From: an uncultured Nitrososphaerales archaeon
GTDB taxonomy: Archaea; Thermoproteota; Nitrososphaeria; Nitrososphaerales; Gagatemarchaeaceae
Length of the DNA: 64,000 nucleotides
Direction of reading: 5' to 3'
Assembly: GCA_963706445.1 (NCBI GenBank)
Contig: OY970160.1
Span: 1,152,001-1,216,000, forward strand
Under the pieces are notes generated by a model, which was not told the DNA's origin, searched no databases, and saw only the letters and a list, made by a program, of their open reading frames with translations. Below are positions 28,479 to 50,082 of this stretch, one piece after another (position 1 is the stretch's first letter; each line of letters starts with the position of its first letter). Position numbers and translations under genes: made by a program.

Positions 28479-30878
28479 TTGACAGGCGACCTCGCCGTAG
28501 GCAAGCCGGTCTCCCCTGAAGACACGGTCAGGAAAGTGACCGGGACGGCTCTGTACACCTACGACTGGGACCTGCCTGGGACTCTGCACGCGAAGCTCGT
28601 CACCAGCATCGTGCCTCACGCCAAGATTGTAGGCATCACCCTGGACAGGGCGAAGGAGATCCCCGGCGTCGTGGTCATCCTGACCGGGAAGGACATGCCC
28701 TTCAGGGTCGGGATGTATGCCGGTGACAGGGACCTCCTGGCGGTCGAGAAGGTGAGATGGGCCGGGCACCCGGTGGCTATTGTCGTTGCGGAGACCCTTG
28801 AGGCCGCAGAACGCGCCTCGGAGCTGGTCGACGTGGAATATGAGAACCTCCCAGCTGTCTTCGACCCCGTCCAGGCACTTGGCCCTGACGCCCCCGTCCT
28901 GCACGAAAGGATGGAGGAGTACAAACACGCACCTGTATTTTATCCGGTGCCGGGGACGAACATCGCAAACAAATTCCGCCTCGTCCACGGAGACATCGAG
29001 AAGGGTTTCGAGGAGTCGGACGAAATCCTGGAGGACGAGTTCAAGATCTCGCATGTCAGCCACGCATACATGGAGACGCAGGGGGTCGTAGCTCAGGCGT
29101 TCAGGGACGGCACCTATGAAATCTGGACAGGCTGCCAGTCTCCGTTCGTCGTCAGGCAGATCATCTCGGAATCGCTGAAGGTCCCGTACAACAAGGTGAC
29201 GGTAAGGGTGCCATTCGTCGGAGGAGGGTTCGGAGGTAAGGCCGGGCTCGGATGGGAGGCACTCGTAGCTCTGGCATCGAAGGCCGCCGGATACAGGCCG
29301 GTGAAGCTCGTCCTCTCCCGGAAGGAGAATTTCGCCTCGGCCGCCTCAAGGGAAGGGGTAGTGGCGAACGTAAAGGCGGGTTTCACCCGGGAAGGCAAGT
29401 GCGTGGCCTACAAGGTCAGGTTCGTCCTCGACGCCGGGGCATACGCGGACTACACGGTCAATGTCTCGAGAGCCATGGGGTACTCGGCCGAAGGGGTCTA
29501 CGAGATACCGAACGTTTACTGTGAGTCCCTCGCGGTCTACACGAACAAGATCCCGACCACGGCCATGAGGGGGTTCGGCTATTCGGAGAGCAACTGGGTG
29601 CTCGAGCAGGTGTTCGAAAGGGCGGCGAAGAAGCTCGGCATGGACTCGGCCAAGATCAGGAGGATCAACCTGCTTAGGCCCGGGGAGTCCCACACCGCCA
29701 CTGGGGAGAGGGTGAGGGAGGACGTCGGCGACCCAAGGAAGGTCCTCCAGACGCTGACGGAGGCCATCGACTGGGAAGGAAAGGTCACGCCCCCATCGGA
29801 GCCATGGAAAGTGCGGGCCAGAGGCTTCGCGCTCTGCGTCAAGGGGCCGTCACAGCCTCCTAACGCTTCCTCCTCGGCCATCGTGAAATTTAACGAAGAC
29901 TCTACCATGGACCTCATCGTCGGCACGGGGAACTTCGGCCAGGGGACTACCACGGCGCTTTCGCAGATGGTAGCAGACCAGTTCGGGGTGGCAGTCGGCA
30001 TGGTCCGAGTGGACCCCCTCAGGGACACGGGAAAGTCCGCCTACACATGGCAGACCGTTGGGAGCAGGGGACTGTTCACGGACGGGGTCGCGACACTAAG
30101 AGCGTGCGAGGACGCGAAGAAACAGATCCTCGACCTTGCCTCACAGGTACTGAGGCTCCCAGCTTCAGAGCTGGAGATATCAGAAGGTACGGTGAAGGCA
30201 CAGGGGAGGCCCTGGGTCTCGCTCCCACTCAAGGACCTAGTCTTCGGCTACGTCTACTCCAACGGGAACACCGTGGGCGGACCAGTCATAGGAAGGGGGC
30301 ATTACACGTCCAGCCTCAACAGCTACCTTGATCCACAGACGGGCCAGGGGGTCCCGACGATATTCCACACGTTCGGCGGGACGGCCGTCGAGGTAGAGCT
30401 CGACCTCATCACAGGCGCCATCGAAGTGGCGAAGGCCGCGCAGGTCTTCGACGTGGGGAAGGTGATCAACCCCCTCCTGCTGAAGATGCAGCTGGACGGC
30501 GGGTTCGTCATGGGGATGAGCATCGCCCTATTCGAGAAGATCAAGTTTGACGAGCAAGGGTGGGTCACGAACCCGAACTTCACCAGCTATTACATCGCGA
30601 GGATGAAAGACGCGCCAAAGGAGTTCGTGACAAGGTATGTCGAGACGCCGCAGTTCGACGGGCCCATGGGAGCCCGCGGCATAGGAGAGCTGAGCATGAT
30701 CTCCGTCGCGTCCGCGATCTCCAACGCTATCTACAGGAGCATCGGGGTCAGGCTGAACAACCTGCCCATGAGCCCAGAGGAAGTGTGGTCGGCGGTTTCA
30801 GCCCAAAAACCTGAGCTGATGGAGAAGGCAATGGAAGCCTACGGGAGGGTGGAGACCACCATGAAGGTGCGACCTTGA
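28479..30878 (+). CDS. Xanthine dehydrogenase family molybdopterin-binding large subunit
   Basis: KVTG, HAYMET, GGGFGGK, TAMRGFG, GQG, GARGIGE. Lacks the CODH AYxCSFR and AYRGAGR motifs. Confidence 0.9.
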   Translation: MTGDLAVGKPVSPEDTVRKVTGTALYTYDWDLPGTLHAKLVTSIVPHAKIVGITLDRAKEIPGVVVILTGKDMPFRVGMYAGDRDLLAVEKVRWAGHPVAIVVAETLEAAERASELVDVEYENLPAVFDPVQALGPDAPVLHERMEEYKHAPVFYPVPGTNIANKFRLVHGDIEKGFEESDEILEDEFKISHVSHAYMETQGVVAQAFRDGTYEIWTGCQSPFVVRQIISESLKVPYNKVTVRVPFVGGGFGGKAGLGWEALVALASKAAGYRPVKLVLSRKENFASAASREGVVANVKAGFTREGKCVAYKVRFVLDAGAYADYTVNVSRAMGYSAEGVYEIPNVYCESLAVYTNKIPTTAMRGFGYSESNWVLEQVFERAAKKLGMDSAKIRRINLLRPGESHTATGERVREDVGDPRKVLQTLTEAIDWEGKVTPPSEPWKVRARGFALCVKGPSQPPNASSSAIVKFNEDSTMDLIVGTGNFGQGTTTALSQMVADQFGVAVGMVRVDPLRDTGKSAYTWQTVGSRGLFTDGVATLRACEDAKKQILDLASQVLRLPASELEISEGTVKAQGRPWVSLPLKDLVFGYVYSNGNTVGGPVIGRGHYTSSLNSYLDPQTGQGVPTIFHTFGGTAVEVELDLITGAIEVAKAAQVFDVGKVINPLLLKMQLDGGFVMGMSIALFEKIKFDEQGWVTNPNFTSYYIARMKDAPKEFVTRYVETPQFDGPMGARGIGELSMISVASAISNAIYRSIGVRLNNLPMSPEEVWSAVSAQKPELMEKAMEAYGRVETTMKVRP

Positions 30879-31741
30879 GCTTCGGTTCCCCCTACACGAC
30901 GCTCCCCGACTTCGCATACCACAGGCCGAAGAGCCTCGAAGAGGCGCTGGCGCTGCTGAAGGAGCATGGAGACGAGGCGAAGGTGATGGGAGGAGGAGTG
31001 GGGCTTATCGCGTTCATGAAGGAGAGGCTCATGTCCCCTACCCACGTGATCGACGTCAAGGACATCGCCGAGCTAATGCAGGTCGAAGAAGTGCCGGGCA
31101 AGGGGCTGAGGGTCGGGGCCGCAGTCTCCATCGCCGAGCTCCTGGAAAGCGGGGTACTACGCAAGCATCACTCAGTTCTGCACGAAGCCCTCTCCAGGGT
31201 AGCTGACCCGATGATAAGGAGGAGGGCGACTCTCGTGGGGAACCTATGCGAGGCGATCCCCTGGGTCGACAGCCCCCCCGCGCTTATCGCACTTGGAGCC
31301 AGCGTCGAGGTCGCCGCGCCTGGAGGGGCAAGGACGATACCGGTGTCTGGGTTCATCAGGGGTCCAGTCGACATCGACCTCGGCCCGACGGAGATGGTGA
31401 CTGCCGTGGACATCCCCGTGGTCAACGGGACCAGGAGCGCATTCGAGAAGTTCACCGGAGGCTCGGAGTTCTCCCTCGCTAGTGTGGCCGTGGTAATGAC
31501 GGGTGATGGGAGGAAGCGCCAACCTGTGGTCGTATACGGGGCGGTGAATTCGATTCCCGTGCGGTCGCCTGAGGTGGAGGATGCGATTAGGGATGGGATA
31601 ACCCCCGGGAGCGTCCGCAAGGCGTCAGCCGTCGCCGGCGAGAAGGTCGAATGCGTCGATGACGTCCTCGCTTCGGCCGTATACCGGAGGCATCTGCTCA
31701 AGGTGATCACTGCGCAGGTTCTCAGGAGGATGATGGTATGA
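30875..31741 (+). CDS. Xanthine dehydrogenase family FAD-binding medium subunit
   Basis: YHRPKSLEEA, IRRRATLVGN, YRRHL; TTGA overlap. Confidence 0.88.
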   Translation: MSFGSPYTTLPDFAYHRPKSLEEALALLKEHGDEAKVMGGGVGLIAFMKERLMSPTHVIDVKDIAELMQVEEVPGKGLRVGAAVSIAELLESGVLRKHHSVLHEALSRVADPMIRRRATLVGNLCEAIPWVDSPPALIALGASVEVAAPGGARTIPVSGFIRGPVDIDLGPTEMVTAVDIPVVNGTRSAFEKFTGGSEFSLASVAVVMTGDGRKRQPVVVYGAVNSIPVRSPEVEDAIRDGITPGSVRKASAVAGEKVECVDDVLASAVYRRHLLKVITAQVLRRMMV

Positions 31742-32241
31742 TAGAGATAACGGTAAACGTCAACGGCAGGACTAGGAGGAGGACGATCAAGGATAACGAG
31801 CTCCTTCTAGACTTCCTCAGAGAGAGGCTCGAAGTCAGGAGCGTGAAGGCGGCGTGCTGGAGGGGAGAGTGTGGCCTCTGTACCGTGATGCTGGACGGCG
31901 CCCTGGTGAAGTCTTGCCTGGTACTGGCGGTCGAGGCTGACGGGAAGGATGTCAAGACGGTCGAGGGCATCACCCCCGAAGGAGGACTCACCCCGATTCA
32001 GGAGGCGTTCGTGAACCATGGAGCGGCACAGTGCGGATTCTGCACCCCCGCCTGGGTCCTTGCGACCCACGAGTTACTAAGGAAGAACCCGCACCCCAGC
32101 GAAGCCGACCTCACCGAAGCCACCAGCGGGCTCGTGTGCAGGTGCGGGACCTACAATCAGATTCGCGAAGCCGTCGCCGAGGTGTCCGCTTCGACCGCGA
32201 AGACTCGAAAGCGCGTGGAAGAAAGGCTTCCGCGAAGATAA
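31738..32241 (+). CDS. Xanthine dehydrogenase family [2Fe-2S] small subunit
   Basis: CWRGECGLC...SC, QCGFCTP, CRCGTY. Confidence 0.9.
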   Translation: MIEITVNVNGRTRRRTIKDNELLLDFLRERLEVRSVKAACWRGECGLCTVMLDGALVKSCLVLAVEADGKDVKTVEGITPEGGLTPIQEAFVNHGAAQCGFCTPAWVLATHELLRKNPHPSEADLTEATSGLVCRCGTYNQIREAVAEVSASTAKTRKRVEERLPRR

Positions 32242-33062: not shown

Positions 33063-33242
33063 TTAGAGGAGCCTGTCTAGGGCGTCGGCTAGCTTCTTGT
33101 CTAGCTTAGGTGCCTGGGTCAGGTCGACCTGGACGCACCTAACGTTCTGGCTTTCAAGAGCCTGCCTGAAAATGTCCAGCCCCAGGTTAAGGACGACGAG
33201 TTCCGACCCGAGAAGCTTTGGCGTCTTCTTGGTCCTAGCCAA
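33063..33242 (-). CDS. FdrA C-terminal domain protein (59 aa, absent from ORF track)
   Basis: Manual translation MARTKKTPKLLGSELVVLNLGLDIFRQALESQNVRCVQVDLTQAPKLDKKLADALDRLL*; TTG start overlaps the fdrA end; resembles the VINxGLxxFxxxL..VxVDW..P tail of FdrA. Confidence 0.75.
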   Translation of the reverse strand: MARTKKTPKLLGSELVVLNLGLDIFRQALESQNVRCVQVDLTQAPKLDKKLADALDRLL

Positions 33243-34827
33243 GGAGGTCCCCCCACCGTCGTTTCAGGCGTGACGAGGCCTGGTCTCCACCGACGACCAG
33301 GGCAGCCTCGGCGGAGAGCAGGGCGTTGCTCGCGAAGAGGGTCGCGCCGGCCGATGTGAGCTTATGGCTCTGCTCACCAAGGGACTGCGGGTCTGAATCG
33401 GTCCCGCAGACGTGTGCCATGACCGCCAACCCGCCGCGCATCGCGACCTCGATTTCGTTCGTGAGGGCTCCTCCGGGGTCCGAAGATGACCCATAGCCCA
33501 GGACCACGTCGAGCATTATTGCAGCCGCGCTTGGGTCTTTGGCCTCTTGGGCGATGCGGAGCCTCCGCAATGTGGGGTCTATCATCGGGTGGGCCCGACC
33601 AGCTGTGAAGAATTCGTCCCCGAGGTCAACTACGCTGTTGTTCTTACTCTTGTTGGGGTCCGGGAGAAGGAACCTGTCTGAAAGAGGTGTGTTGCTGTAC
33701 GCCTCTCCCGTCAGCTCCCTGAAGATCAGAAGCGTTTCGTGGGCCAGGGTGCCGCCACTGTAGAGCCCCCTGACGAACTTCCGCCTTTTCCCGAGGGTTA
33801 AGGCGGAAGCTTTGGAGGCCTTCAATATTTCTTCGAACTCCATCGAGATCCTTCCCTCGAACGCGTCCTCGACCTCTTTCCCCGATGCCCGGGCGGCCCT
33901 GAAGACCGCCGAATGTAGGGTCTTGGCATATGTCATGCGGCCAGGCTTAGCGCTCGGAGCGTCCAGTCCAAGGAAGCACGCGATGACGGGTTTCGTCGTC
34001 TCCTTCTCGACGTGGCTCATCACCTCGTGGATGACCCTCTCCTTGGGGGTCTTTGCGATTATCATCAGCATCTTCGTCCCTTCGTCCTTCTCGAGAACGT
34101 CCAGGCACTCCTTCATCATCAGCCCTCCAACCTTTTCGCTGACGTCGGTCCCCCCGACCCCGAGGGCCGCCGAAACTCCGAGCCCTATCCTGTCGAGCAT
34201 TATGGAGACCTCCTGGATCCCGGTGCCTGCCGATGCCACGATCCCAATGTCTCCCTTCTTCACAGAGTTGGCGAAACCGAGGCCGATGCCGTTGATTATC
34301 GAAGTCCCCGCCCCCGGTCCCATCAGCAGGAGCCCCTTCGACCGAGCGAACTCCTTCAGTTTCAGTTCCTGGTCAGGCGGGACGTGGTCGCTGAAGAGGT
34401 GGACGTTGATACCGTTCCGGAGCAGTTCCATGGACGGCTCGAAGGCCTGGCCCCCAGGGACCGATACTATGGCGAGGTTAGCCCCGCCGAGCCGTTCGAT
34501 GGCCGAGCTCACGCTGTGAAGGACAGTGGTCCTTTGGCCCCCTGAGGCTGCGGGAGGGGCCATGACAAGCTTCTCGACATTCTGCATCACATCGGCGCCG
34601 TCGAAGCCCTGGCGGACCCTGACGGCCATAATCAGGTCCCCGTCCCCGGCAGCGGCCGTTTCCTTCGAAATGAGCCCCAGGTCCTGCAACAGACGCCGGT
34701 TGGTGTCAGTGCCCATGGCGACAACTGCGTCGTCGACTCCGTCTAGCTTCTTCACGTCTTCCGTCAGGCGCATGAGCTGGATGGAGTCGCGGAACAGATT
34801 CCGCTTGACTACGTTTAGTACTGGCAA
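33235..34827 (-). CDS. fdrA: FdrA/YahF family (acyl-CoA synthetase-like; AllF-like) protein
   Basis: FRDSIQLM, MGT, LFSD, MGP..GT, SAGTGIQE, GLYSGGTL, DLGD.FT.GRAHPMIDP, LDVVLGYG. Confidence 0.88.
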   Translation of the reverse strand: MPVLNVVKRNLFRDSIQLMRLTEDVKKLDGVDDAVVAMGTDTNRRLLQDLGLISKETAAAGDGDLIMAVRVRQGFDGADVMQNVEKLVMAPPAASGGQRTTVLHSVSSAIERLGGANLAIVSVPGGQAFEPSMELLRNGINVHLFSDHVPPDQELKLKEFARSKGLLLMGPGAGTSIINGIGLGFANSVKKGDIGIVASAGTGIQEVSIMLDRIGLGVSAALGVGGTDVSEKVGGLMMKECLDVLEKDEGTKMLMIIAKTPKERVIHEVMSHVEKETTKPVIACFLGLDAPSAKPGRMTYAKTLHSAVFRAARASGKEVEDAFEGRISMEFEEILKASKASALTLGKRRKFVRGLYSGGTLAHETLLIFRELTGEAYSNTPLSDRFLLPDPNKSKNNSVVDLGDEFFTAGRAHPMIDPTLRRLRIAQEAKDPSAAAIMLDVVLGYGSSSDPGGALTNEIEVAMRGGLAVMAHVCGTDSDPQSLGEQSHKLTSAGATLFASNALLSAEAALVVGGDQASSRLKRRWGDLLG

Positions 34828-34908: not shown

Positions 34909-36174
34909 TTGGCTGTTTCAAGGGAAGAGGTCGAGGCGGCGAACCAGAAGGCGGTCGAGAGGATGATGGACTCCGAGCCCACCTGGGTGGACATCGCGCC
35001 CGCCCGGAACAAGCTTGGACTGAAGGGGAAGACCCTCCTACACGCGGGGCCCCCGATGCGGTGGAAGGACGCCAGCGGGCCCATGAGAGGGGCAATCATC
35101 GGGGCGGCGATCTATGAGGGGTGGGCTGAGACCGAGAAGAAGGCCATGGCCCTCGTCGAGGAAAGGGAGGTGACACTCGACTGCGACCACCACCACAACG
35201 CGGTGGGGCCCATGGCCGGGATAATCTCACCGAGCATGCCGGTCTTCGAGCTGGAGGACAAGAAATTCGGAACGAAGACCTACTCGAACATGAACGAGGG
35301 GATTGGGAAGGTCCTCAGGTATGGGGCCTACAGCAGGGAGGTTCTGGATAGGCTGGAATGGATGTCTGATACGGCGGCTCCGGTGCTGCAGGCGACGGTC
35401 AAGGCGATGGTGAGGGCAGGAGGAGGGCTCCCATTGAAGCCGATGATCGCCCAGGCACTTACCATGGGGGACGACTGCCACAACAGGTACGTGGCTACGA
35501 CGTCCCTGTTCGCAAAACAGATAGCGCAGTTCTATGTCAAGACAGGGTTCGACCCCAAGACACTCTCCGATGTGAGCAGGTTCATCGATGGGAACAATTT
35601 CACGATGCTCAACATGGGGATGGCGGCCGGCAAGGCCATGACATTGGCAGGGCACAACATCAGGTACAGCACCCTGGTGACAGTGATGTCGAGGAACGGG
35701 ACCGACGCGGGGATCTGGGTCAGCTCGTTGGGTAACAGGTGGTTCACGACGAAAGCCCCTATCCCGAAGGGGCTCTGGTTCCCCGGATTCACGGAAGCCG
35801 ACGCCAACCCAGACCTCGGGGACAGCTCAATTACTGAGACGGCGGGGTACGGCGGGTTCGCCATGGCGGCCGCCCCGGCGATTGTGTCATGGGTCGGGGG
35901 GAGCGTCCAGGCGGCCCTCGAAGTGACCGAGAGGATGTACGAGATCACCCAGGCCCAGCACAGGCACTTCCTCATCCCCTTCCTCGACTTCAAGGGGACC
36001 CCGGTGGGCATCGACATCCGCAAGGTGCTCAAGACTGGGGTGGCTCCGACCATCAACACCGGGATCGCGCACAGGAAGGCGGGGGTAGGCCAGGTAGGGG
36101 CCGGGACAGTGACCTTCCCCATGCAGGTCTTCAAGGACGCCTTCAGCGCCTACGTAGACAAGTTCGGGGCGTAG
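34909..36174 (+). CDS. DUF1116 / YlbE-YahG family protein (AllG-like)
   Basis: LLHAGPP, AVGPMAGIISPSMPV, NEGIGKVLRYGA, MGDDCHNR, RNG, DLGDSSITETAG, INTGIAH...GQVGAG. Confidence 0.88.
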   Translation: MAVSREEVEAANQKAVERMMDSEPTWVDIAPARNKLGLKGKTLLHAGPPMRWKDASGPMRGAIIGAAIYEGWAETEKKAMALVEEREVTLDCDHHHNAVGPMAGIISPSMPVFELEDKKFGTKTYSNMNEGIGKVLRYGAYSREVLDRLEWMSDTAAPVLQATVKAMVRAGGGLPLKPMIAQALTMGDDCHNRYVATTSLFAKQIAQFYVKTGFDPKTLSDVSRFIDGNNFTMLNMGMAAGKAMTLAGHNIRYSTLVTVMSRNGTDAGIWVSSLGNRWFTTKAPIPKGLWFPGFTEADANPDLGDSSITETAGYGGFAMAAAPAIVSWVGGSVQAALEVTERMYEITQAQHRHFLIPFLDFKGTPVGIDIRKVLKTGVAPTINTGIAHRKAGVGQVGAGTVTFPMQVFKDAFSAYVDKFGA

Positions 36175-36269
36175 GCCAGGGCCCCTGGGCTAGGAAGGCG
36201 CAATCTGCAATCATTGAGGGAGAACGCTTTATACCGTCTGGGACTCCCTTTGGGACGAACCTGAAAGCG

Positions 36270-37799: not shown

Positions 37800-38735
37800 C
37801 TACCCCTTCCGGTACGGCTTCAACAGGAACTTTGGCGCCCTCGCTTTCCTCCCAAAGACGGGGATCAGGACTAGGAGGAAGATGTAGGGGAGCATGTTGT
37901 AGAGTGTGGAGACCGATGCGACGCTGGAGCCGGATATCGAGATGTATTCGTTCTGGAGAGCGTATACTATGTTGAAGGACAGGGCGGCGAATAGGACCCG
38001 ATAGGGTTTCCAGTTTGCGAAATATATCATGGCCAGCACGATGAAGCCTCTTCCCGCGATTATGTTTGTCTCGAACCCGGGGACGAAGTTGCCTGCGAAG
38101 TACGAGCCCGCGACGCCGAACATTACGGCTCCGAACATTATCGCCAGGAACCTGACCTTGTTGACGCTCACCCCCATATTGTCCGCCGCCTTGGGATTCT
38201 CCCCGACGGCTCGCACCCTGAGTCCCAGCGAAGTCCGATTTAGGAACAGGGCGGTCAGGACGACGAGAACAATGGAAAGATAGACCAGAATGTTCTGCTT
38301 GAGCAGGATTATCCCGATGACGGGGACGGTCCCCCAGCCTGAGAAGATTGGCGGCAGGCTGACGTAGTTCGGCGCGGACCCGCTGGAAAAAGCGACATCA
38401 TAGAGTATCAAAGAGAACCCCAGACCAAATAGATAGACGGCGAGCCCCAGGGCTATCTGGTCCAGGCGCACCCGGAGCGCGAAGAACCCAAAGACCACGC
38501 CGAACACACCTGCAATCCCAATGGCGGCGAGAAGCGCGATCCAAGGGTTCCCCGTCACGGCGTCGACGATGAAGGTTGTCACCAGAGACATCAACATGAT
38601 TCCCTCCAACCCCATGTTCGCCACACCTGATTTCTCTGATACGATCTCTCCCATCCCTGCGAACAGGTAGAAGGGTGAGAGTGTGAGGGTGGTCGAGATC
38701 ACGGCAATCGCTACGTCGGAGTAGTTGACTGTCAA
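37800..38735 (-). CDS. Nucleoside ABC transporter permease
   Basis: EKSGVANMGLEG, GLRVRAVGENPKAA, GRGFI, LPY. Confidence 0.88.
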   Translation of the reverse strand: MTVNYSDVAIAVISTTLTLSPFYLFAGMGEIVSEKSGVANMGLEGIMLMSLVTTFIVDAVTGNPWIALLAAIGIAGVFGVVFGFFALRVRLDQIALGLAVYLFGLGFSLILYDVAFSSGSAPNYVSLPPIFSGWGTVPVIGIILLKQNILVYLSIVLVVLTALFLNRTSLGLRVRAVGENPKAADNMGVSVNKVRFLAIMFGAVMFGVAGSYFAGNFVPGFETNIIAGRGFIVLAMIYFANWKPYRVLFAALSFNIVYALQNEYISISGSSVASVSTLYNMLPYIFLLVLIPVFGRKARAPKFLLKPYRKG

Positions 38736-41122: not shown

Positions 41123-41560
41123 TCAGCTGAGTTTTGCCTTTACGCAATCGAAGAGCTGGTTCACTATCTTCTTGATATTGCCCTCGACGAGTGGCTTCGC
41201 CAGACTCCCCAGTGGGCCGTTGATGTTTATGTTCGAGTCCCAGGTCAAATCTGTCTCCGCTTCTGCCTGGGCTAGGCTGATGTTGACCGCCGCACTGAAG
41301 CCGCTCCCTGCCCCGGAACCTGAGAGCTCCAGCGCCGCTGTATGGCTGTTCTTGTCTTCCTTGACCACCTTGGTGGTGGTCTGGAAGGTGCCCCGGATGA
41401 ATCCGATGGAGACCTTGACCGCAGCCGTGATCCGCTTGTTCTCACCGATGGTGTACTGCTGGACCCCGGGGACGCATTCAATCACCTTGGCGGGGTCGGA
41501 GACATAGTCCCAAACCTTGTCGATGTTGCTGGGTATCCTGAACTTCCCCTGGAGAAGCAT
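41123..41560 (-). CDS. coxG: CoxG/SRPBCC family protein
   Basis: VWDYVSDP..VIECVPG, G.L.SL, F.CVK. Confidence 0.8.
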   Translation of the reverse strand: MLLQGKFRIPSNIDKVWDYVSDPAKVIECVPGVQQYTIGENKRITAAVKVSIGFIRGTFQTTTKVVKEDKNSHTAALELSGSGAGSGFSAAVNISLAQAEAETDLTWDSNININGPLGSLAKPLVEGNIKKIVNQLFDCVKAKLS

Positions 41561-41668: not shown

Positions 41669-42571
41669 ATGAAAGCGAACCCTCTCGCCGGTTTCCTGGA
41701 GTCCATTGAGCTTCGGATGATCAAGCCATCAAAGAAAGCACTCAGGTCAGAAACAGGTCCCATATCGGGGCTCATGATGTCGATACAGGACAAGGGCCTG
41801 CTCGAGCCGATCATAGTACGGCCGGCCGCGGACGGCTTCGAAGTCGTCGCCGGGATGAGGAGATACGAAGCATGCAAGAAGCTGGGTTGGCGCAGGGTGC
41901 CCGTCCATGTGGTCGAGCTCGACGACAGGGAGGCCTTTGAAGTCTCCCTGCTTGAGAACATCCAGCGCGAGACTCTGAACCCCATAGAGGAGGCCAGGGC
42001 GTTCAGGAATTACGTCGAGGAGTTCGGCTACGGTGGAGAGACGGAGCTCGCCCGGCGAATAGGCAAGAGCCAGGAATACGTCAGCAGGAGGATAGGGCTA
42101 CTTTCGCTGCCGCAACGGGTCCAGGACCAGATTATGCGGCGCCGCATACCTCCTAGCGTGGCCCAGGAGTTGACCCTCCTGGACGACGACTACGCCGAGA
42201 AGTTGGCTGACGAGATAGGCGACCGCGGGCTTTCGATGAGGGAAGTGAGGCACATCATTCGACGGAGACAGTCCAAGGAGATGGGGGCCAAGGCAATTGA
42301 GGCGCGGTTCTTTGAGACCGACCCCGATGGCCTGGAACGGAGGGTCAAGAGGATGTCGAGAGAACTGAACATAGCCGCTGCCTCTCTTGGAGGGGCGGTG
42401 GTAAGGCTCGGGGAAGTCGCCGAAGGGCTCGAGGATGAATGGCTTGTCCGAGAGGCGATATTCGTCTGCCGGGACAACATCAGCCAGCAGATCGACAACC
42501 TGACCAGGCTCAGACGGAAGATAGAAAGGGACGAGGAGACAAACTCGGGAAGGCTTTCCCTGCTAAGTTGA
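41669..42571 (+). CDS. ParB/Spo0J-like protein
   Basis: SIQDKGLLEPIIVRP, VAGMRRYEA, LLENIQRETLNPIEEA, then an HTH (ELARRIGKSQEYVS). Confidence 0.85.
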   Translation: MKANPLAGFLESIELRMIKPSKKALRSETGPISGLMMSIQDKGLLEPIIVRPAADGFEVVAGMRRYEACKKLGWRRVPVHVVELDDREAFEVSLLENIQRETLNPIEEARAFRNYVEEFGYGGETELARRIGKSQEYVSRRIGLLSLPQRVQDQIMRRRIPPSVAQELTLLDDDYAEKLADEIGDRGLSMREVRHIIRRRQSKEMGAKAIEARFFETDPDGLERRVKRMSRELNIAAASLGGAVVRLGEVAEGLEDEWLVREAIFVCRDNISQQIDNLTRLRRKIERDEETNSGRLSLLS

Positions 42572-43440: not shown

Positions 43441-44241
43441 ATGAAACTGTACGACCTGTCGCAACCCCTTAACCAAGAGACGCCGTTCTGGCCACTGTAC
43501 CCGCCATTCGAGGTGAAGTTCATCAAGAGAAAAGCAGAGCAGGGAGTCAACGCCCAGTACATCATGACGTCGAACCACATGGGCACCCACCTGGACGCTC
43601 CCCTCCACTTCGTGACGAACGGCAAGACCATCGACCAGATCCCTCTGACCTGGCTCTACGGGCCGGGCATTATCGTCGACGTCAGCGAAGTGGGAGACCT
43701 CGGAATCTATACTAAGGAAATCGTGGAGAGGAACGCAAAGGCAGCCGGAGGAGTGAAGGACGGGGACATCCTGATACTCTACACGGGCTGGAGCAAGTAT
43801 GCCTGGTATCAGCCTCCCAAGCCGAACGGGACGGCCGACGAGGAGAGGTACATCCACATGCACCCAGGGCCGACGAAGGCCTTCTGCGACTACCTCCTTG
43901 AGAAGAAGATTCACGTCTGGGGCGTGGACGCGGTTTCCACGGATCACCCCATGAACCTACCAATCGGAAGGTTCCTCCCGAGGGTCAGCACCAAGGTGAG
44001 GGCCGCCGCAGAGAAGAAGTTCGGCAAGGAGAACATCGACACCCTCTTCCCTGATTCCGACTATCAGGTGACCCACAACGTCCTGTTCCCCCGGGATTGC
44101 ATCCACATCGAGAATATTGGGGGCCAGATCGAAGAGGTACTCGGCGGAAAGAAGGCGTTCAGGACCACCATTGGGTGCTTCCCGTGGCTCTTCAAGGGCG
44201 GGGAAGCAGCCTTCGCAAGGACCGTCGCCTTCGTAGAATAA
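43441..44241 (+). CDS. Cyclase family metal-dependent amidohydrolase (kynurenine formamidase/isatin hydrolase fold)
   Basis: DLSQP, HMGTHLDAPLH, GDILILYTGW, GVDAVSTDHP, HIEN; TTTTTATA at about 43411. Confidence 0.88.
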   Translation: MKLYDLSQPLNQETPFWPLYPPFEVKFIKRKAEQGVNAQYIMTSNHMGTHLDAPLHFVTNGKTIDQIPLTWLYGPGIIVDVSEVGDLGIYTKEIVERNAKAAGGVKDGDILILYTGWSKYAWYQPPKPNGTADEERYIHMHPGPTKAFCDYLLEKKIHVWGVDAVSTDHPMNLPIGRFLPRVSTKVRAAAEKKFGKENIDTLFPDSDYQVTHNVLFPRDCIHIENIGGQIEEVLGGKKAFRTTIGCFPWLFKGGEAAFARTVAFVE

Positions 44242-44264: not shown

Positions 44265-45611
44265 ATGGAAACCCCTTCGGTGGGCTGGCTACTCAGCCTG
44301 GTGGACGATGGGAAGCTGACAGACGTCGATGGTTCGCAAATGGTCCTAACGGCGCCCCTTTCGGCGGAGACAATCGCCCGAGACGACGGACTGCTCGCGG
44401 GCATTGCAAGGATAGGGGGGGTGGAGACGGCTGTCTTCGCCCAAGAGCCTACCTACAAGGGGGGCTCCATGGGGTTGAGCCACACCAAGAGGCTTGAGCG
44501 CCTCGTGTCCGTGGCGGCTGCTGAGAAGCTCCCCATCATTGGCTTCTACGATTCTGGAGGGGTGAGGGTCCAGGAGGGGGGCCACTCCCTCGAGGAGGCG
44601 AGCGCCCTGGTCGGCCAGCTGATCAAGGCGAGGGAAGTAGTACCGGTCGTCAGCGCCATCATGGGGACGGTGAGCGGCGCGGCCGCCTATTCGGCGTACA
44701 TGGGAGACGCCATCGTCATGATCAAAGGGAAAAGCAGCCTCTTCGTCTGGGGGCCGGGCGTCGCCAAAGCCGAGACCCAAGAGGAGATTGGGACCGAGGA
44801 GCTGGGAGGGTGGCAGGTGCACCAAGGGAACGGGACGGCTTCCCACATCGTCGAGGACGAGAAGGAGTGCCTGCAAGTGGTCGTGCGTTTGCTTTCGTAC
44901 TACGGAGGGAAGGGAGGGGCGAACCGTTCGCCGATGCCCGACCAGCCCCGCACCCTGAAACCCATTGAAGATGCCTTCGACCCCGGGTCCTTCCTGGAAT
45001 TCAGGGGCCAATACGCACCTAGCGTGGTCACCGGGCTGGCGCTATTGGAAGGGAAGACGTTCGGAGTCGTCGCCTCCAACCATGAGGTCATGAGAGGCTT
45101 CCTTGATGTTGATGCGTGCCGTAAGATCACTCGGCTCGCCTCCATGTGCAACACGCTCAGGATCCCAATGGTCACTTTCCTCGACAGTCCCGGAGTGTAT
45201 CCTGGCCCCGAGCAGGAGAAGGCCGGGCTCATCAGGGCGAGCGGGGAGGCGATCAAAGAGTACGCTTCGAGCGGATGCCCCAAGGTGACGGTGATCACAG
45301 GCGAGGCCTATGGCGGTGCGTTCGTGGGTTTCGCGAGCAAGGCGCTTGGGTCGAAGAAGGTCTACGCCTACGCGACGGCCCGGATCTCGGTCCTGAGCCT
45401 ACCGGCGTATTCGGAGATATTTCTTAGGAGGAAGCTAGACGCAATGAAGGAGGACGAGAGAAAGGTCGAGCAGGACAAGGCGTCTGCGGCCTTCATCAAG
45501 CAGATGGACCCGACCATCGGGGTGAGCCAGGGGTACGTCGACGAAGTGATAGACCCCTCGCAGACAAGAGAGAAACTCATCGAAGCGTTCAGAGGAGCCG
45601 GAGTACTCTAG
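44265..45611 (+). CDS. Acyl-CoA carboxylase/decarboxylase carboxyltransferase subunit
   Basis: GGSMG, DSGGVRVQEG, GAAAYS, EELGG, DSPGVYPG..QE, GEAYGGA. Confidence 0.8.
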   Translation: METPSVGWLLSLVDDGKLTDVDGSQMVLTAPLSAETIARDDGLLAGIARIGGVETAVFAQEPTYKGGSMGLSHTKRLERLVSVAAAEKLPIIGFYDSGGVRVQEGGHSLEEASALVGQLIKAREVVPVVSAIMGTVSGAAAYSAYMGDAIVMIKGKSSLFVWGPGVAKAETQEEIGTEELGGWQVHQGNGTASHIVEDEKECLQVVVRLLSYYGGKGGANRSPMPDQPRTLKPIEDAFDPGSFLEFRGQYAPSVVTGLALLEGKTFGVVASNHEVMRGFLDVDACRKITRLASMCNTLRIPMVTFLDSPGVYPGPEQEKAGLIRASGEAIKEYASSGCPKVTVITGEAYGGAFVGFASKALGSKKVYAYATARISVLSLPAYSEIFLRRKLDAMKEDERKVEQDKASAAFIKQMDPTIGVSQGYVDEVIDPSQTREKLIEAFRGAGVL

Positions 45612-45612
45612 G

Positions 45613-46017
45613 CTATTCCCCGGTCAGCTGAGTCAGCTCTACCAGGACCCCGCCCGTGGATTTCGGGTGCATGAAATTCACCTTGCTCCCGAACTTGCCG
45701 TCGGCGGCCTTTTCGTAGATGAACCTGAATCCCTTCGCCTTCAGTTCCTCCGTGGTCTTTTCGATGTCGTCGACTTCGAAGGCGATGTGGTGGAGGCCTT
45801 CCCCCCGCTCGCGGATGAACTTGGCAAGGCTGCTGTCCTCACTGGTTGGCTCGAGGAACTCGACGCTGGTGTCCCCCGCCTTCAGCAGGGCAATCTTCGC
45901 CTTCTGGCCCGCGACCTCGGTTTGCCTTATCTCGAAGGTCCCAATCTGATTGTAGATCGCCAGCATCTGGTCAACGCTCTTGACGGCGACACCGACGTGG
46001 TCGAACTTCATTCCCAT
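45613..46017 (-). CDS. mce: Methylmalonyl-CoA epimerase
   Basis: DHVGVAV, EFLEP, GEGLHHIAFEV, FMHPKSTGGVLVEL; adjacent to the mutase. Confidence 0.88.
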   Translation of the reverse strand: MGMKFDHVGVAVKSVDQMLAIYNQIGTFEIRQTEVAGQKAKIALLKAGDTSVEFLEPTSEDSSLAKFIRERGEGLHHIAFEVDDIEKTTEELKAKGFRFIYEKAADGKFGSKVNFMHPKSTGGVLVELTQLTGE

Positions 46018-46019
46018 GG

Positions 46020-47609
46020 CTAGAACGCCTGCCTCGCCTTGTAGGCCCCGTGTATTTCTCTTAGCGTGTCGCTGATCTCTCCGACGGTGCAACCGGCCTT
46101 GACCGCTGCCGAGATCGAGGGGAGCATGTTTTCGCGACGCTGGGCGGCGCTCCTCAGAAGCTCGAGCTTCTCGGCCACTTTGCTCTGATTTCTTTTCTTC
46201 TTGAGCGCTTTGACCCTCCTGGCCCTTTCGACCTGGATTCTCTCCGGGAGGACCTGGACCTTCCTCTTCGACGGGGCATTTGGCTTGTAGGCGTTGACCC
46301 CGACGATGATCCTTCGTTTGGTCTCTACGGCCATCTGCTTTTCGTAGGCAGAGTTGAGAATCTCCTTCTTGACATAGCCGCTCTCAATCGCCTTCAGCAT
46401 CCCGCCCATCTTCTCGACCCGCTCGATCTCCTCGAAGGCGAGACGTTCGAGGGTGTCCGTCAGGTACTCGAGATAGTACGAGCCTCCAAGAGGGTCGGCA
46501 GTCAGCGTCACACCGGACTCGCTGGCTATGACTTGTTGCGTCCTCAGCGCAAGCTTAGCCGACTCCTCTGACGGGAGCGAAAGCGCTTCGTCCATCGAAT
46601 TGGTGTGCAGGGACTGAGTGCCACCCAGGACGGCGGCTAGGGCCTGGATGGTCACCCTGACTGCGTTGTTCTCGGGGTCCTGGGCGGTCAAGGTCTCCCC
46701 GGCCGTTTGGGTGTGGAACTTCAGCTTCGCCGACTCGTCGTCCTTTGCGCCGAACTTTTCCTTCATGATACGCGCCCAGATCCTCCGGGCGGCCCTGAAC
46801 TTCGCCACCTCTTCCATGAAGTCGTTGTTGCATGCGAAGAAGAATGAGAAGTGGGGTGCGAATTGTTCCAGACTGAGGCCCCTCTGGAGGGCGGCGTTGG
46901 TGTATGTTATGGCGTCGGAGAAGGTGTAGGCGAGCTCCTGGACGGCTGTCGAGCCAGCCTCCCTGATGTGGTACCCGCTTATGCTGATGGGGTGCCACTT
47001 CGGGTAATTCTTGACCGAGTATTCGACCAGGTCTATGGCCAGCGAGAGGGAGGGCTCGGGAGGAAAGATGTAGGTATTCCTGGCTATGAATTCCTTGAGC
47101 ACGTCGTTCTGCACCGTCCCCCTGACTTCGCTCCTGGGAACCCCAGTTTTTTCTGCCACGGCTGCGTACATGGAAAAGAGGATGGGAGCCGTGGAATTGA
47201 TCGTCATGGAAGTGCTCACTTTGCCGAGGTCGATCCCGCGGAAGATCTCCTGCACGTCATCGATTATGCTCACGGCGACCCCCACCCTCCCGATCTCCCC
47301 CATGGCGCGAGAGTTGTCGGAGTCTAGTCCAAGCTGAGTCGGAAGGTCGAAGGCCAGGCTCAGCCCGGTCTGCCCCTGGTTCAGCATGAACTTCAGTCTC
47401 TTGTTGGTGTCCGCTGACGTCCCGAAACCGGAGTATTCCCTCATGGTCCAAAGCCTCTTCCTGTACATCTCAGGGTAGATCCCCCGAGTGTAGGGATACT
47501 TCCCCGGCTCCTCCTCGAGCCTGGACGACGCCTCGCCGGAATACACCCTGCCCACATCAATGCCCGAAAGGGTCCTCGGGTTGCTCCGATCCGCCTCATT
47601 AGAGGCCAA
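46020..47609 (-). CDS. Methylmalonyl-CoA mutase, substrate-binding (large) subunit
   Basis: PGKYPYTRG, WTMREYSGF (Tyr), QNDVLKEFIAR (Arg), ISISGYHIREAG, GGTQSLHTN. No B12-binding domain. Confidence 0.9.
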   Translation of the reverse strand: MASNEADRSNPRTLSGIDVGRVYSGEASSRLEEEPGKYPYTRGIYPEMYRKRLWTMREYSGFGTSADTNKRLKFMLNQGQTGLSLAFDLPTQLGLDSDNSRAMGEIGRVGVAVSIIDDVQEIFRGIDLGKVSTSMTINSTAPILFSMYAAVAEKTGVPRSEVRGTVQNDVLKEFIARNTYIFPPEPSLSLAIDLVEYSVKNYPKWHPISISGYHIREAGSTAVQELAYTFSDAITYTNAALQRGLSLEQFAPHFSFFFACNNDFMEEVAKFRAARRIWARIMKEKFGAKDDESAKLKFHTQTAGETLTAQDPENNAVRVTIQALAAVLGGTQSLHTNSMDEALSLPSEESAKLALRTQQVIASESGVTLTADPLGGSYYLEYLTDTLERLAFEEIERVEKMGGMLKAIESGYVKKEILNSAYEKQMAVETKRRIIVGVNAYKPNAPSKRKVQVLPERIQVERARRVKALKKKRNQSKVAEKLELLRSAAQRRENMLPSISAAVKAGCTVGEISDTLREIHGAYKARQAF

Positions 47610-47686: not shown

Positions 47687-48832
47687 TTGACGCGCCTAGA
47701 CGAGGAGCAGGTGAATAGTGTGAACTACAAGTTGCTGTCGCTGCTTATCGTGGGTTTGCTCCTTTCCCAGGCGTCGTACTCGGCGACCTACCCGCTTACC
47801 ATTGCACCGGGACGCTCCTGGCCCCTGTCCGTGGTCGCAGACTCTTCGAGGGGGCTGATATACTTCGACGCCACATCCGGCTTGTATCCGCCCACGGGCT
47901 TTTCGTTCGGAATAATCAATGCGACGAGCCACGACGTGGTCAAGATCCTTCCGCTGGACGTGAACCCCGGAGCAATGGTGCTGGACCAGTCGAGTGGGGA
48001 TGTCTACGTGGCAGGTAACAATTCGATCGCCGTCTTTGATGAGGGCAACCAGTCGTTCGTTCACGACCTCGTGCTGGGGCACCCCATTCTCTCGATGGCA
48101 TTTGACAGCTCTGTCTCTTCGGACCTGTTCGTGACTTCGGGTCACAGCCTCCTTTCGCTGGATCCACACACAGGGTCGATCCTGGGGAACTCGAGCTTCT
48201 CGAACCCCCTGGACGGGGTCCAGATAGACCCCTCCAACGGCAGGCTCTTCGTAGGTCAATACCCCAACAGTGAGATATCGGTTTTGAACGCGTCCAACCT
48301 GGTGTCCATAGGAAACATCGGCCTCCCTGGCTGTTGCGCGCTACAATTCGCACTCGACGTGGGGACTCAGTCACTGTACGCGGCGACGGGAACTAACTAC
48401 GTGTACTTGGTAAATGCCGCCACAGACACCTTTGAGAAGAGCATCCAGGTCGCCCCCTCGGCAGAGAATTCTACGAACTCCATCGTCGTGGACAACGAGA
48501 CAGGTCGGGTGTACGTCGCCTCGTCCCTAGGAGGCTCGATCACGGAACTCGACGTCTCAAGCGGCGCGGTGGCCGACCACTTCCAGGCACAGTACCAGGT
48601 GGCGGGATTAGCCGTCGACACGAAGACGGAGGAGCTTTACGCCTCCAACTATCACCAGATCACTGTATTCGACGCGAACAGGCCAAGGATCCGGGTTTTC
48701 GGCATCGCAATTATCGTGATTGTCGCCGCGGCAGCGGTCCTTGTTGTGTACTTGCTGATCAGACGCAGGGAGAACAGGGAGAGGATGAGGGTTCAATCGG
48801 GATGGTCCAAGAACGGCCCACCCCAGGGGTGA
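47687..48832 (+). CDS. YncE/YVTN-like beta-propeller surface protein
   Basis: Signal-like N-terminus, repeated D..G..YV blades, C-terminal TM followed by RRRE; true start may be slightly downstream. Confidence 0.7.
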   Translation: MTRLDEEQVNSVNYKLLSLLIVGLLLSQASYSATYPLTIAPGRSWPLSVVADSSRGLIYFDATSGLYPPTGFSFGIINATSHDVVKILPLDVNPGAMVLDQSSGDVYVAGNNSIAVFDEGNQSFVHDLVLGHPILSMAFDSSVSSDLFVTSGHSLLSLDPHTGSILGNSSFSNPLDGVQIDPSNGRLFVGQYPNSEISVLNASNLVSIGNIGLPGCCALQFALDVGTQSLYAATGTNYVYLVNAATDTFEKSIQVAPSAENSTNSIVVDNETGRVYVASSLGGSITELDVSSGAVADHFQAQYQVAGLAVDTKTEELYASNYHQITVFDANRPRIRVFGIAIIVIVAAAAVLVVYLLIRRRENRERMRVQSGWSKNGPPQG

Positions 48833-50082
48833 CGACAATGGATCTAGTGGCAAGAGGGGCCAGACTCAGAGGTGTCGATGGGTTGCGGGACGTTGGCATT
48901 GATGGTGGCAGGGTTGAAGAGGTCAAGGAGCATATCCGTGGAAGTGCGGACAAGGAGATCGCGGCGGATGGGAGGCTCCTCACATCAGGGTTCGCTAACA
49001 TCCACTGTCACCTGGACAAGTGTCTGACCAGCTCCTGGGCAGAGGTCTGGAAGGGATCGGAGGATGGTTCTCCGCAGGCGATCCCGTCGGCAACGAACAT
49101 CAAGCGGAGGTTCACTGAGGATGACATCGTCGCCAGGGCGTCCAAGGCACTGGAATCCTCTGTGTTTGCTGGGACCACGGCGGTCAGAGCCTTCGCGGAC
49201 GTTGACTCGATTGGGGGGTTGATGGCTGTCAAGGGACTCCTCAAGGTGAAGGGGAAGTTCAGAGATTTGATCGATGTGCAGGTGGTAGCATTCCCCCAAG
49301 AGGGTGTAATCCGGGACGAAGGGACCCAGGAGCTGCTCGAGAAGAGCATGGAACTGGGCGCTGATGTTGTAGGAGGGATTCCATGGTACGAAGAGAGTGC
49401 GGATGCCTCGAAGAAGCACACGGACATCGTCTTTGAGTTGGGGAAGAAGTACGACAGGGACATCCATACCCTCATAGACGACAACTCAGACCCGAACTCC
49501 AGGAACATCGAATACCTGCTCTCGAAGACGATCAGGGAGGGGTTCAAGGGCCGGGTCGCGGCATCGCACTGCAGAGGGGGGCTCGACTCGCCCGACGAAG
49601 AATACGCGAAAAGGATCTACGGGCTGGCGAAGGAGGCAGGTGCCACCATCGTCGAGAACTCACATGTGAGCCTCTTCATGTACGGGAGGTCAGACAAGCA
49701 CCCCGTGAGGAGAGGGGTCACGAGGGTGAAGGAGTTCCTAGGTTCGGGAGTCAACGTCGCCGTCGGGCAGGATGACATCGACGACCCGTACTACCCCTTC
49801 GGAAGGGGGGACATGCTGGAATTGGCATTTGTCGCGTGCCATGCGGCCCATTTGGGCTCGCCAACAGAGATCGAATGGGCCTTCGACTTGGTCACCGACA
49901 ACCCCGCGAAGGGGATGCGGCTAGAGGGATACGGGATCCGGGAAGGTGACAATGCAGACCTCGTCCTCCTGGACGCCCCGAGCGTCCACGAAGCAATCAG
50001 GCTGCAGCCAGACAGGCTCGCGGTCATCAAACGGGGCAGGATTGTTGCCGAATCGAGGACAGAACGGGTCCTGCGTTCCTAG
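48829..50082 (+). CDS. Cytosine deaminase-like amidohydrolase (CodA/YahJ group)
   Basis: HCHLDK, QVVAFPQEG, VVGGIP, ASHC, RRGVTRVKE, GQDDIDDPYYPFG; GTGA overlap (or ATG 48838). Confidence 0.85.
   Translation: MTTMDLVARGARLRGVDGLRDVGIDGGRVEEVKEHIRGSADKEIAADGRLLTSGFANIHCHLDKCLTSSWAEVWKGSEDGSPQAIPSATNIKRRFTEDDIVARASKALESSVFAGTTAVRAFADVDSIGGLMAVKGLLKVKGKFRDLIDVQVVAFPQEGVIRDEGTQELLEKSMELGADVVGGIPWYEESADASKKHTDIVFELGKKYDRDIHTLIDDNSDPNSRNIEYLLSKTIREGFKGRVAASHCRGGLDSPDEEYAKRIYGLAKEAGATIVENSHVSLFMYGRSDKHPVRRGVTRVKEFLGSGVNVAVGQDDIDDPYYPFGRGDMLELAFVACHAAHLGSPTEIEWAFDLVTDNPAKGMRLEGYGIREGDNADLVLLDAPSVHEAIRLQPDRLAVIKRGRIVAESRTERVLRS

Follow-up and report, generated by a model that had tools for sequence, protein, structure and literature searches.

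Pyrimidines are catabolised by the reductive route, by the Rut route, and by a poorly characterised oxidative route that runs through barbiturate. The classical oxidative pathway of Rhodococcus and Mycobacterium consists of uracil/thymine dehydrogenase, barbiturase, and ureidomalonase; to our knowledge, the genes of this route besides that of barbiturase are still unassigned, and we know of no gene assigned to uracil/thymine dehydrogenase (EC 1.17.99.4). Here, we analyse a gene cassette found in a 64,000-nucleotide stretch of DNA (the window, C1:1152001-1216000) of a non-ammonia-oxidising Nitrososphaerota archaeon, whose genome is a single contig of 1.82 Mb, 95% complete. The cassette encodes a molybdenum (Mo) hydroxylase of the Xdh family, subunits related to Escherichia coli AllF and AllG, a BMP-type ABC transporter, two metal-dependent hydrolases, two GNAT-fold paralogs, and enzymes of (methyl)malonyl-CoA metabolism. 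It is most aptly seen as a variant of the oxidative pyrimidine pathway, made up of non-homologous enzymes of which most are unassigned. We consider the chances evenly balanced that it serves the oxygen-independent catabolism of a pyrimidine-type ring, most likely uracil or thymine, and a full-text literature search returned no published description of such a route.

The cassette and the classical oxidative pathway, which PMC3758960 and PMC4051656 name, would have in common the proposed intermediates, barbiturate and ureidomalonate, and a first enzyme that is a Mo hydroxylase taking its oxygen from water. They would differ in three respects, i.e., the place of barbiturase would be taken by a hydrolase of the cyclase family or of the CodA-like type; the ureido group would be released as carbamoyl phosphate, with its energy conserved as ATP, instead of as urea; and the carbon would exit in the form of a CoA thioester, where the classical pathway gives free malonate. 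A barbiturase of the AtzD/TrzD type (PF09663) had no match in the host genome, a search that is uninformative because its control matched 0 of 14 reference genomes.

Another close system is that of E. coli AllFGH, a proven oxamic transcarbamylase that converts oxalurate and phosphate into oxamate and carbamoyl phosphate, and its kinase AllK (PMC11326118). Counterparts of all the subunits and of the kinase are encoded in the host genome. The host AllF shares 38% identity with E. coli YahF and 34% with E. coli AllF, and AllG, which is single-copy, is 46% identical to E. coli AllG and 41% to YahG. The third subunit (DUF2877) is absent from the window but not from the genome: a true AllH (PF11392, 78-80 bits) is encoded at C1:1131229-1132065, outside the window and 53 kb upstream of AllF. 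Its gene (region C1:1129800-1132100) overlaps a 474-aa gene with a weak CobW/UreG-type GTPase match, and an amidase-signature gene of 465 aa lies 5 kb from it. The carbamate kinase is encoded 245 kb downstream and scores 426 bits against a curated cut-off of 358. By analogy with AllFGH and AllK, an N-acyl-urea would be phosphorolysed to carbamoyl phosphate, and the kinase would recover ATP from it. Unlike the E. coli allFGH-allK operon, which lies near allECD, the host genes stand outside an allantoin regulon, and their partners are the Mo hydroxylase, the cyclase, the GNAT-fold proteins, and the (methyl)malonyl-CoA enzymes. Whereas the E. coli complex acts on oxalurate, the host substrate would probably be one carbon longer, i.e., ureidomalonate.

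The tail of E. coli AllF is, in the host, a separate gene of 59 aa. Its product is 35% identical to residues 499-554 of E. coli AllF and 31% identical to residues 5-53 of YahG. Since it is homologous both to the tail of AllF and to the head of YahG, this mini-gene represents a small module that E. coli has fused to one partner or the other and that stands alone here, and these similarities hint that the module bridges the AllF- and AllG-type subunits. The E. coli yahEFG-yahI-yahJ cluster resembles the host set in that its paralogs of AllH, AllF, and AllG are accompanied by a carbamate kinase gene and by a gene of the amidohydrolase superfamily; of the two E. coli proteins compared, YahF is nearer to the host AllF, and it is the N-terminus of YahG that the mini-gene matches. 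On the other hand, the host amidohydrolase is of the CodA type (34% identity) and not of the YahJ type (23%), and the yah genes include none for a Mo hydroxylase, a cyclase, a GNAT-like protein, or a carboxyltransferase.

The evidence that these genes belong together comes from a neighbourhood census. From 76 loci around relatives of the GNAT-like proteins, we set aside 11 that spanned less than 7 kb and 13 from the host's own lineage (85-93% identity), and we clustered the open reading frames (ORFs) of the remaining 52; many of these loci are partial and the counts are lower bounds. AllG and AllF were each found in at least 20 of the 52 loci, AllH in 19, and the large, medium, and small Xdh subunits in 17, 17, and 16, respectively. 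The carboxyltransferase and the cyclase (single-copy in the host genome) each occur in 15 distant loci, the 59-aa gene in 11, next to AllF and outside the host genus, the ABC permeases and the ABC ATPase in 10 each, the Bmp-family binding protein in 9, and the CodA-like protein in 7. Biotin ligase was found in 6 loci, and the biotin carrier, OAD_beta, and an NCS2 permease in 5 each. The unit recurs in Nitrososphaerota, Thermoprotei, Bathyarchaeia, Geothermarchaeota, Chloroflexota, Thermotogota, and others. A metagenome-assembled genome (MAG) of Thermotogaceae carries it as a single-strand operon (XdhM-S-L, NCS2, AllH, AllF, AllG, cyclase, GNAT), and so does a Chloroflexota MAG, in another order (AllH, AllF, AllG, cyclase, GNAT, NCS2, XdhM-S-L). 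The order found in Thermoprotei is cyclase, AllF, mini-gene, AllG, AllH, XdhC, and MocA, with the GNAT gene convergent. A kinase gene is included in a Geothermarchaeota cassette, and several accessory genes (thiolase, enolase-superfamily, AMP-ligase) differ by lineage. Moreover, the GNAT-like protein and AllG are confined to the identical six of 41 related genomes. The association of these genes is far beyond chance, both in the census and in this phyletic match; we have hardly any doubt that the gene set forms one functional unit, and the grouping of the genes in the sequence-only reading is borne out across archaeal and bacterial lineages.

The large subunit of the Mo hydroxylase had been read as a non-CODH (carbon monoxide dehydrogenase) enzyme of the Xdh family, and this description stands. 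Indeed, the strings AYR, YRC, and CSFR of the CODH loop (AYRCSFR/AYRGAGR type) were not found in it, and it scores 290 bits against the CoxL model TIGR02416 (cut-off 991). It falls below every NCBIfam equivalog cut-off, the best score being 457 bits for XdhA/PucD/XdhB (cut-off 780), and its closest solved structures are the alpha subunit of 4-hydroxybenzoyl-CoA reductase, quinoline oxidoreductase, and CoxL. It carries the motif GGGFGGKAG, whereas the named xanthine dehydrogenase references have GGGFGGKE, whose Glu we take to be the substrate-binding Glu802 of the bovine enzyme. This missing Glu is a weak argument alone because E. coli XdhA lacks it too. In a quick IQ-TREE phylogeny, all large subunits linked to cassettes, those of bacteria among them, group in a single clade of 15 sequences (SH-aLRT 100), to which neither the named references for xdhB, Se-dependent Xdh, and PaoC nor the four other Xdh large-subunit paralogs of the genome belong. 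The large subunit thus groups with neither the PaoC-type aldehyde oxidoreductases, CODH, nor canonical xanthine dehydrogenase; the last identity was rejected on the score, the motif, and the position outside xdhB/Se-Xdh. Its best match in a plasmid collection (37% identity) belongs to a lone Xdh LMS-XdhC-PucB set on a Bacillus plasmid devoid of cassette genes and is uninformative on the substrate. XdhC and the MocA-like protein, which lie inside the cassette in Thermoprotei, are by family maturation factors for Mo enzymes of the molybdopterin cytosine dinucleotide (MCD) type.

Transport genes of related cassettes bear on the nature of the ring. All five NCS2 permeases embedded in them have a Glu at the first position of the NAT motif, as E. 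coli UraA does (E290), where XanQ and UacT have a Gln, and the two bacterial ones are 33-37% identical to UraA versus 22-29% to XanQ/UacT. These residues and identities suggest permeases of the uracil type. In the window itself, allG is immediately followed, on its own strand, by the gene of the ABC ATPase.

Two hydrolases are candidates for the opening of the ring. The cyclase has its metal motif HxGTHxDxPxH intact, as HMGTHLDAPLH, and isatin hydrolase, which opens a lactam, is among its solved relatives. The sequence-only reading had considered that it might be a kynurenine formamidase; it scores 64 bits against the arylformamidase model TIGR03035, well under the cut-off of 223, and by these matches it is a PF04199 family member but not an arylformamidase equivalog. 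The CodA-like protein, for its part, reaches 340 bits against NF005748 (cut-off 438) and retains the HxH motif, Gln156, His246, and Asp313 (of the Asp-Asp pair). In this protein and in six cassette-linked orthologs, HxxE is replaced by LxxD and Trp319 by Tyr (His214/Glu217 and Trp319 in the numbering of the literature, without Met1; H215/E218 when Met1 is counted). The orthologs devoid of HxxE come from Caldarchaeales, Geocrenenecus, and Bathyarchaeia (loci L043, L044, L045, L046, L073, and L093). Because HxxE, the hallmark of the deaminases, is replaced, the protein should not be called a cytosine deaminase, and the deamination step of the sequence-only reading becomes doubtful. The HxxE-less subgroup probably has a distinct activity, and the host protein may be a hydrolase in another role, possibly ring opening.

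The two GNAT-fold paralogs are 38% identical (E 2e-60). A Pfam search of both gave no family at E ≤ 0.01, the best value being 0.093, for paralog B only. An AlphaFold (AF2) model from 43 homologs has a pLDDT of 92, and Foldseek returned 358 PDB matches to it at E ≤ 0.001; all 50 matches listed are GNAT-type acyl/acetyltransferases. Structural alignment with VIA-align gave Z 14.9 and rmsd 2.9 over 168 residues with 8gxk_D, and Z 14.1 with the N-acyltransferase FdhC; relatives of the PA3270 type (1yre, CoA-bound) match too. Both paralogs are, on this model, predicted to have the GNAT fold, in agreement with what had been proposed from the window. The family keeps R138 and G143 within K-R-x-x-R-x-G, a partial match to the pyrophosphate loop for acyl-CoA, which we take to be Q/R-x-x-G-x-G/A in GNATs, and many charged residues. 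The possibility that the paralogs are diverged AllH (DUF2877) was discarded, as the genome has a separate true AllH and the paralogs have a GNAT fold. No malonyl-CoA decarboxylase or CurA-type GNAT decarboxylase appears among the top 50 structural neighbours of either list, which does not by itself exclude such an activity. The family has at least 537 relatives in GTDB species genomes, archaeal (Nitrososphaerales, Caldarchaeales, Desulfurococcales, Bathyarchaeia, Geothermarchaeota, Hadarchaeota) as well as bacterial (e.g., Chloroflexota, Thermotogaceae, Spirochaetales, Methylomirabilota), and B-type orthologs (55-58% identity) adjoin AllF/AllG/AllH in Bathyarchaeia and bacteria. It is not always cassette-bound since two lone homologs, in a Desulfurococcales MAG and a Terriglobales MAG, stand in unrelated neighbourhoods. 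Our best guess, a speculative one, is that these proteins transfer the (methyl)malonyl group from an activated amide or acyl-urea to CoA, and the two paralogs are perhaps specialised for two acyl groups or two steps.

The proposal that the pathway ends in (methyl)malonyl-CoA gained support from other lineages. The cassettes of Caldarchaeales, Geothermarchaeota, and Desulfurococcales contain an MmdA-type carboxyltransferase (799 bits), a biotin carrier, OAD_beta, and biotin ligase (BPL), and methylmalonyl-CoA mutase and epimerase genes are embedded in Geothermarchaeota and Bathyarchaeia cassettes. A thiolase stands at the carbon end of the cassette in a Bathyarchaeia locus; in 3 archaeal loci (e.g., L078:10851-12382), the GNAT-like gene is followed by one for a thiolase and, downstream, by a small gene. 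The window adds a mutase copy to the housekeeping one, which lies at C1:1246691-1248235, and the two are 50% identical. Two mutase matches are found only in the six cassette-positive members of the genus, 17 of the 18 other members having one match and one having none. The genome keeps two mutase large subunits, one B12-binding subunit, and an epimerase, with no detected biotin enzyme. The carboxyltransferase is the sole Carboxyl_trans gene of the genome, in single copy, and is of a short type that scores 298 bits against the mmdA model (cut-off 999). Within the genus, this short type (281-292 bits; fragments in two genomes) is limited to the six cassette-positive genomes, and only close relatives (≥ 60% identical) from soil Nitrososphaerales were returned as homologs; a PccB-type carboxyltransferase (> 600 bits) is found in eight cassette-negative relatives and in 0 of the 6 cassette-positive genomes. 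By this phyletic pattern, the mutase, the epimerase, and the carboxyltransferase are linked with the cassette. As one mobile DNA block would give the same pattern, this link rests partly on the independent cases of Geothermarchaeota and Bathyarchaeia. The short carboxyltransferase has its Carboxyl_trans domain in common with the Na+-translocating MmdABCD and with MdcD-MdcE of the biotin-independent malonate decarboxylase. No biotin carboxylase, OAD_beta, or biotin carrier was detected in the genome, whose sole Biotin_lipoyl match lies in a 415-aa ORF, so that decarboxylation by the host enzyme would be biotin-independent, unlike that by MmdABCD. The earlier proposal that malonyl-CoA goes to the carboxyltransferase is modified by the short type of the enzyme and its lack of a biotin partner.

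Taken as a pathway, the cassette could work as follows. The BMP-type ABC transporter would import the base or nucleoside, and the Mo/FAD/iron-sulfur hydroxylase, matured by XdhC and MocA and with CoxG alongside, would oxidise C6 to give barbiturate or 5-methylbarbiturate. The cyclase, perhaps aided or replaced by the CodA-like enzyme, would open the ring to ureido(methyl)malonate. AllF, the 59-aa module, AllG, and the unlinked AllH would then phosphorolyse this acyl-urea to carbamoyl phosphate and a (methyl)malonyl amide, and the unlinked carbamate kinase would convert carbamoyl phosphate into ATP, NH3, and CO2. Acyl transfer to CoA by the GNAT paralogs would give malonyl-CoA and methylmalonyl-CoA, of which the first would be decarboxylated to acetyl-CoA by the short carboxyltransferase, independently of biotin, and the second converted into succinyl-CoA by the epimerase and the extra mutase. 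Several of these steps would be expected from the chemistry of the families, i.e., the water-derived oxygen of Mo-dependent hydroxylation, metal-dependent amide hydrolysis, N-acyl-urea phosphorolysis, the ATP yield of carbamate kinase, and the conversion of methylmalonyl-CoA into succinyl-CoA. The identity of the ring as uracil or thymine, the choice of the ring-opening hydrolase, and biotin-independent decarboxylation by the carboxyltransferase are speculative.

Pyrimidines are preferred to purines because the large subunits form their own Xdh clade, the NCS2 permeases appear to be of the uracil type, the cassette ends in (methyl)malonyl-CoA, and the genome has a separate purine-type island. 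The (methyl)malonyl end supports uracil and thymine since barbiturate and 5-methylbarbiturate would yield exactly malonyl and methylmalonyl units, while oxalurate yields a C2 unit. Several observations weigh against the pyrimidine proposal. The CodA-like enzyme lacks HxxE, which makes entry from cytosine doubtful, and the carboxyltransferase has no biotin partner. The only B12-binding subunit of the genome is encoded beside the housekeeping mutase, none accompanying that of the window. Mutase and epimerase genes accompany the cassette in no more than 2 of the 52 loci from beyond the genus, and among the members of the genus the island could travel as one DNA block, whatever its function. AllH and the carbamate kinase are unlinked to AllF and AllG in the host genome. 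The transporter of the window is of the BMP ABC type and not NCS2, its binding protein reached no NCBIfam equivalog, with a 'putative B6' model as its only (weak) match, and the three archaeal NCS2 permeases are about equidistant from UraA, XanQ, and UacT overall. The set of sequences used for comparison included no characterised uracil/thymine dehydrogenase or ureidomalonase. Finally, in a non-AOA (non-ammonia-oxidising archaeal) Nitrososphaerales MAG, allFGHK and bmpA-nupABC have been read as serving the use of oxalurate, a purine product (PMC12625717). The pyrimidine interpretation of the sequence-only reading is thus strengthened by co-conservation, by the Xdh clade, by the NCS2 type, and by the CoA modules, and its deamination step becomes doubtful; the roles it gave to the cyclase and GNAT proteins stay conjectural.

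One alternative is the breakdown of a purine-derived ureide, in which the Xdh enzyme would hydroxylate a purine or an intermediate of the imidazolone/hydantoin type, the cyclase or the CodA-like enzyme would produce oxalurate, and AllFGH would convert it into oxamate and carbamoyl phosphate. AllFGH has been characterised with oxalurate only (PMC11326118), the host AllG is slightly nearer to E. coli AllG than to YahG, and BMP transporters classically bind purine nucleosides, all of which agree with a purine substrate as does the published reading of allFGHK and bmpA-nupABC. Oxamate, however, is a C2 product, which leaves the recurrent (methyl)malonyl-CoA decarboxylase and mutase modules unexplained; the related cassettes have permeases of the uracil type, and the large subunit falls outside the named xanthine dehydrogenases. 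Pfam and NCBIfam models detected no allantoin-pathway gene in the window, the rest of the genome not having been searched for allB/C/D/E, and the census found none in the related cassettes. Moreover, the genome already has a purine-type island at C1:1431000-1458400 (L112, L113), which weakens the purine or allantoin substrate named earlier as the main alternative. In this island, a carbamate kinase gene precedes four genes for amidohydrolases. Two Xdh large subunits are encoded, one of 763 aa with two pyridoxal-phosphate (PLP) enzymes and an ornithine transcarbamylase-like gene, the other of 838 aa next to an adenine deaminase, and a second ornithine transcarbamylase-like gene is present. YgeW-like and YgeX-like genes are among those of the island, which is similar to the reductive urate cluster (xdhD/ygeW/ygeX/ssnA) of E. 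coli (PMC12507026). We consider a purine substrate for the cassette distinctly unlikely.

Another N-heterocycle yielding a malonyl-type unit and an acyl-urea, or a similar carbamoyl donor, is a doubtful candidate, if a better one than the purines; modified pyrimidines (5-hydroxymethyluracil, isobarbiturate, an orotate-like compound), a pyridine or pyridone, a pterin/lumazine fragment, and a compound of the vitamin-B6 type can be named. It would suit the solved relatives of the large subunit, which act on (hetero)aromatic rings (4-hydroxybenzoyl-CoA reductase, quinoline oxidoreductase, 6-hydroxypseudooxynicotine dehydrogenase), the 'putative B6' match of the binding protein, the unusual active site of the CodA-like subgroup, and the two GNAT paralogs and lineage-variable accessory genes, which suggest flexible substrates. 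AllFGH chemistry nevertheless needs an N-acyl-urea, which few natural rings beyond pyrimidines and purines supply, the NCS2 permeases have the uracil-type Glu, and uracil and thymine account for both the malonyl and the methylmalonyl ends with no further assumption. It could also be that the genes have no pathway in common, the window being a mosaic of unrelated genes, for a generic Mo hydroxylase, the remnant of an AllFG system, a transporter of nucleosides, and the housekeeping metabolism of propionate. The operons of the window do alternate in direction, AllH and carbamate kinase are encoded elsewhere, mutase and epimerase are common housekeeping genes, and ParB-like and beta-propeller genes interrupt the set. 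Against this stand the recurrence of gene order and content in at least six archaeal and several bacterial lineages, the perfect phyletic match among the 41 related genomes, the mutase of the window, an extra copy found with the cassette only, and the position of the ABC ATPase gene directly 3' of allG. The co-conservation data largely refute the mosaic, which we consider highly improbable.

The features of the window, whose proteins were scanned with Pfam and NCBIfam models under the curated NCBIfam cut-offs, are collected in Table 1. Every gene named in the sequence-only reading was recovered, at or close to its claimed position. Two further genes, absent from that reading, are present. The ParB-like gene immediately precedes those of GNAT paralog B, the cyclase, and the carboxyltransferase, and in the neighbourhood census it is cassette-adjacent in the host genus only; its product may be a local regulator, and its membership of the cassette is uncertain. 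The same uncertainty holds for the beta-propeller gene, which is not cassette-adjacent in the other loci of the census. Directly upstream of the cassette, Pfam matches reveal an operon for a complex-I-like [NiFe]-hydrogenase (window positions 18977-27620); the hydrogenase could be an electron sink for the Mo hydroxylase.

Table 1. Genes of the cassette and of its maturation factors, with positions in the window
Feature	Position	Strand	Matches and remarks
Mo hydroxylase large subunit, Xdh family	28479..30878	+	Pfam Ald_Xan_dh_C, MoCoBD_1, MoCoBD_2
FAD-binding medium subunit	30875..31741	+	Pfam FAD_binding_5, CO_deh_flav_C
2x[2Fe-2S] small subunit	31738..32241	+	Pfam Fer2, Fer2_2
GNAT-fold paralog A, 246 aa	32304..33044	+	predicted structure; no Pfam/NCBIfam match
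59-aa mini-gene, overlaps AllF end	33063..33242	-	similarity to E. coli AllF tail / YahG head
AllF/FdrA-like subunit	33235..34827	-	Pfam CoA_binding, Ligase_CoA; NF004760 404 bits, cut-off 433
AllG/DUF1116 subunit	34909..36174	+	PF06545, E 3.9e-85
ABC transporter ATPase, two ABC domains	36180..37793 (start approximate)	+	PF00005, two stretches
Two BPD_transp_2 permease genes	37800..39781	-	PF02653 in both
BMP/PnrA-family substrate-binding protein	39785..41062	-	PF02608, 76 bits
CoxG (SRPBCC) protein	41123..41560	-	PF06240, E 1.2e-30
ParB-like protein	41669..42571	+	ParB_N, HTH_ParB; nucleoid-occlusion-like score 153 bits
GNAT-fold paralog B, 242 aa	42644..43372	+	38% identity to paralog A
Cyclase-family metal amidohydrolase	43441..44241	+	PF04199, E 2.4e-39
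Short carboxyltransferase, ~448 aa	~44265..45611	+	PF01039
Methylmalonyl-CoA epimerase	45613..46092	-	TIGR03081 138.6 bits, cut-off 115
Methylmalonyl-CoA mutase large subunit	46020..47609	-	TIGR00641 721 bits, cut-off 304
Beta-propeller protein, overlaps CodA-like gene start	47687..48832	+	weak SGL/YncE-type matches
CodA-like amidohydrolase	48802..50082	+	34% identity to E. coli CodA
XdhC	59354..60217	-	PF02625, PF13478
MocA-like cytidylyltransferase	60278..60892	+	PF12804
moaA/B/C/E and moeA, with XdhC and MocA	56.6-62.1 kb		

That the cassette encodes a complete, oxygen-independent, and energy-conserving pyrimidine pathway, common to archaea and bacteria and giving functions to several orphan families, is a tentative proposal, somewhat more likely to fail than to hold. 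If it is true, the Xdh clade marked by GGGFGGKAG would be the uracil/thymine dehydrogenase, the cyclase or the HxxE-less CodA-like enzyme would be a non-homologous barbiturase, and the complex of the AllFGH/YahEFG type would act as a ureidomalonate phosphorylase. Acyl-urea/amide:CoA acyltransferases would make up the GNAT-fold family, and the short carboxyltransferase would be a biotin-independent malonyl-CoA decarboxylase. A function would thereby be suggested for the yahEFG paralogs of E. coli and for the GNAT-fold family as a whole. The cassette would then represent a fourth, energy-yielding strategy of pyrimidine catabolism, in which ATP is gained from the ureido group, and the carbon skeleton ends up as a CoA thioester. 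Through its hosts, the non-AOA Nitrososphaerota, Bathyarchaeia, Thermoprotei, and Chloroflexota, it would bear on the turnover of nucleobases in their habitats, i.e., soils, sediments, and hot springs.

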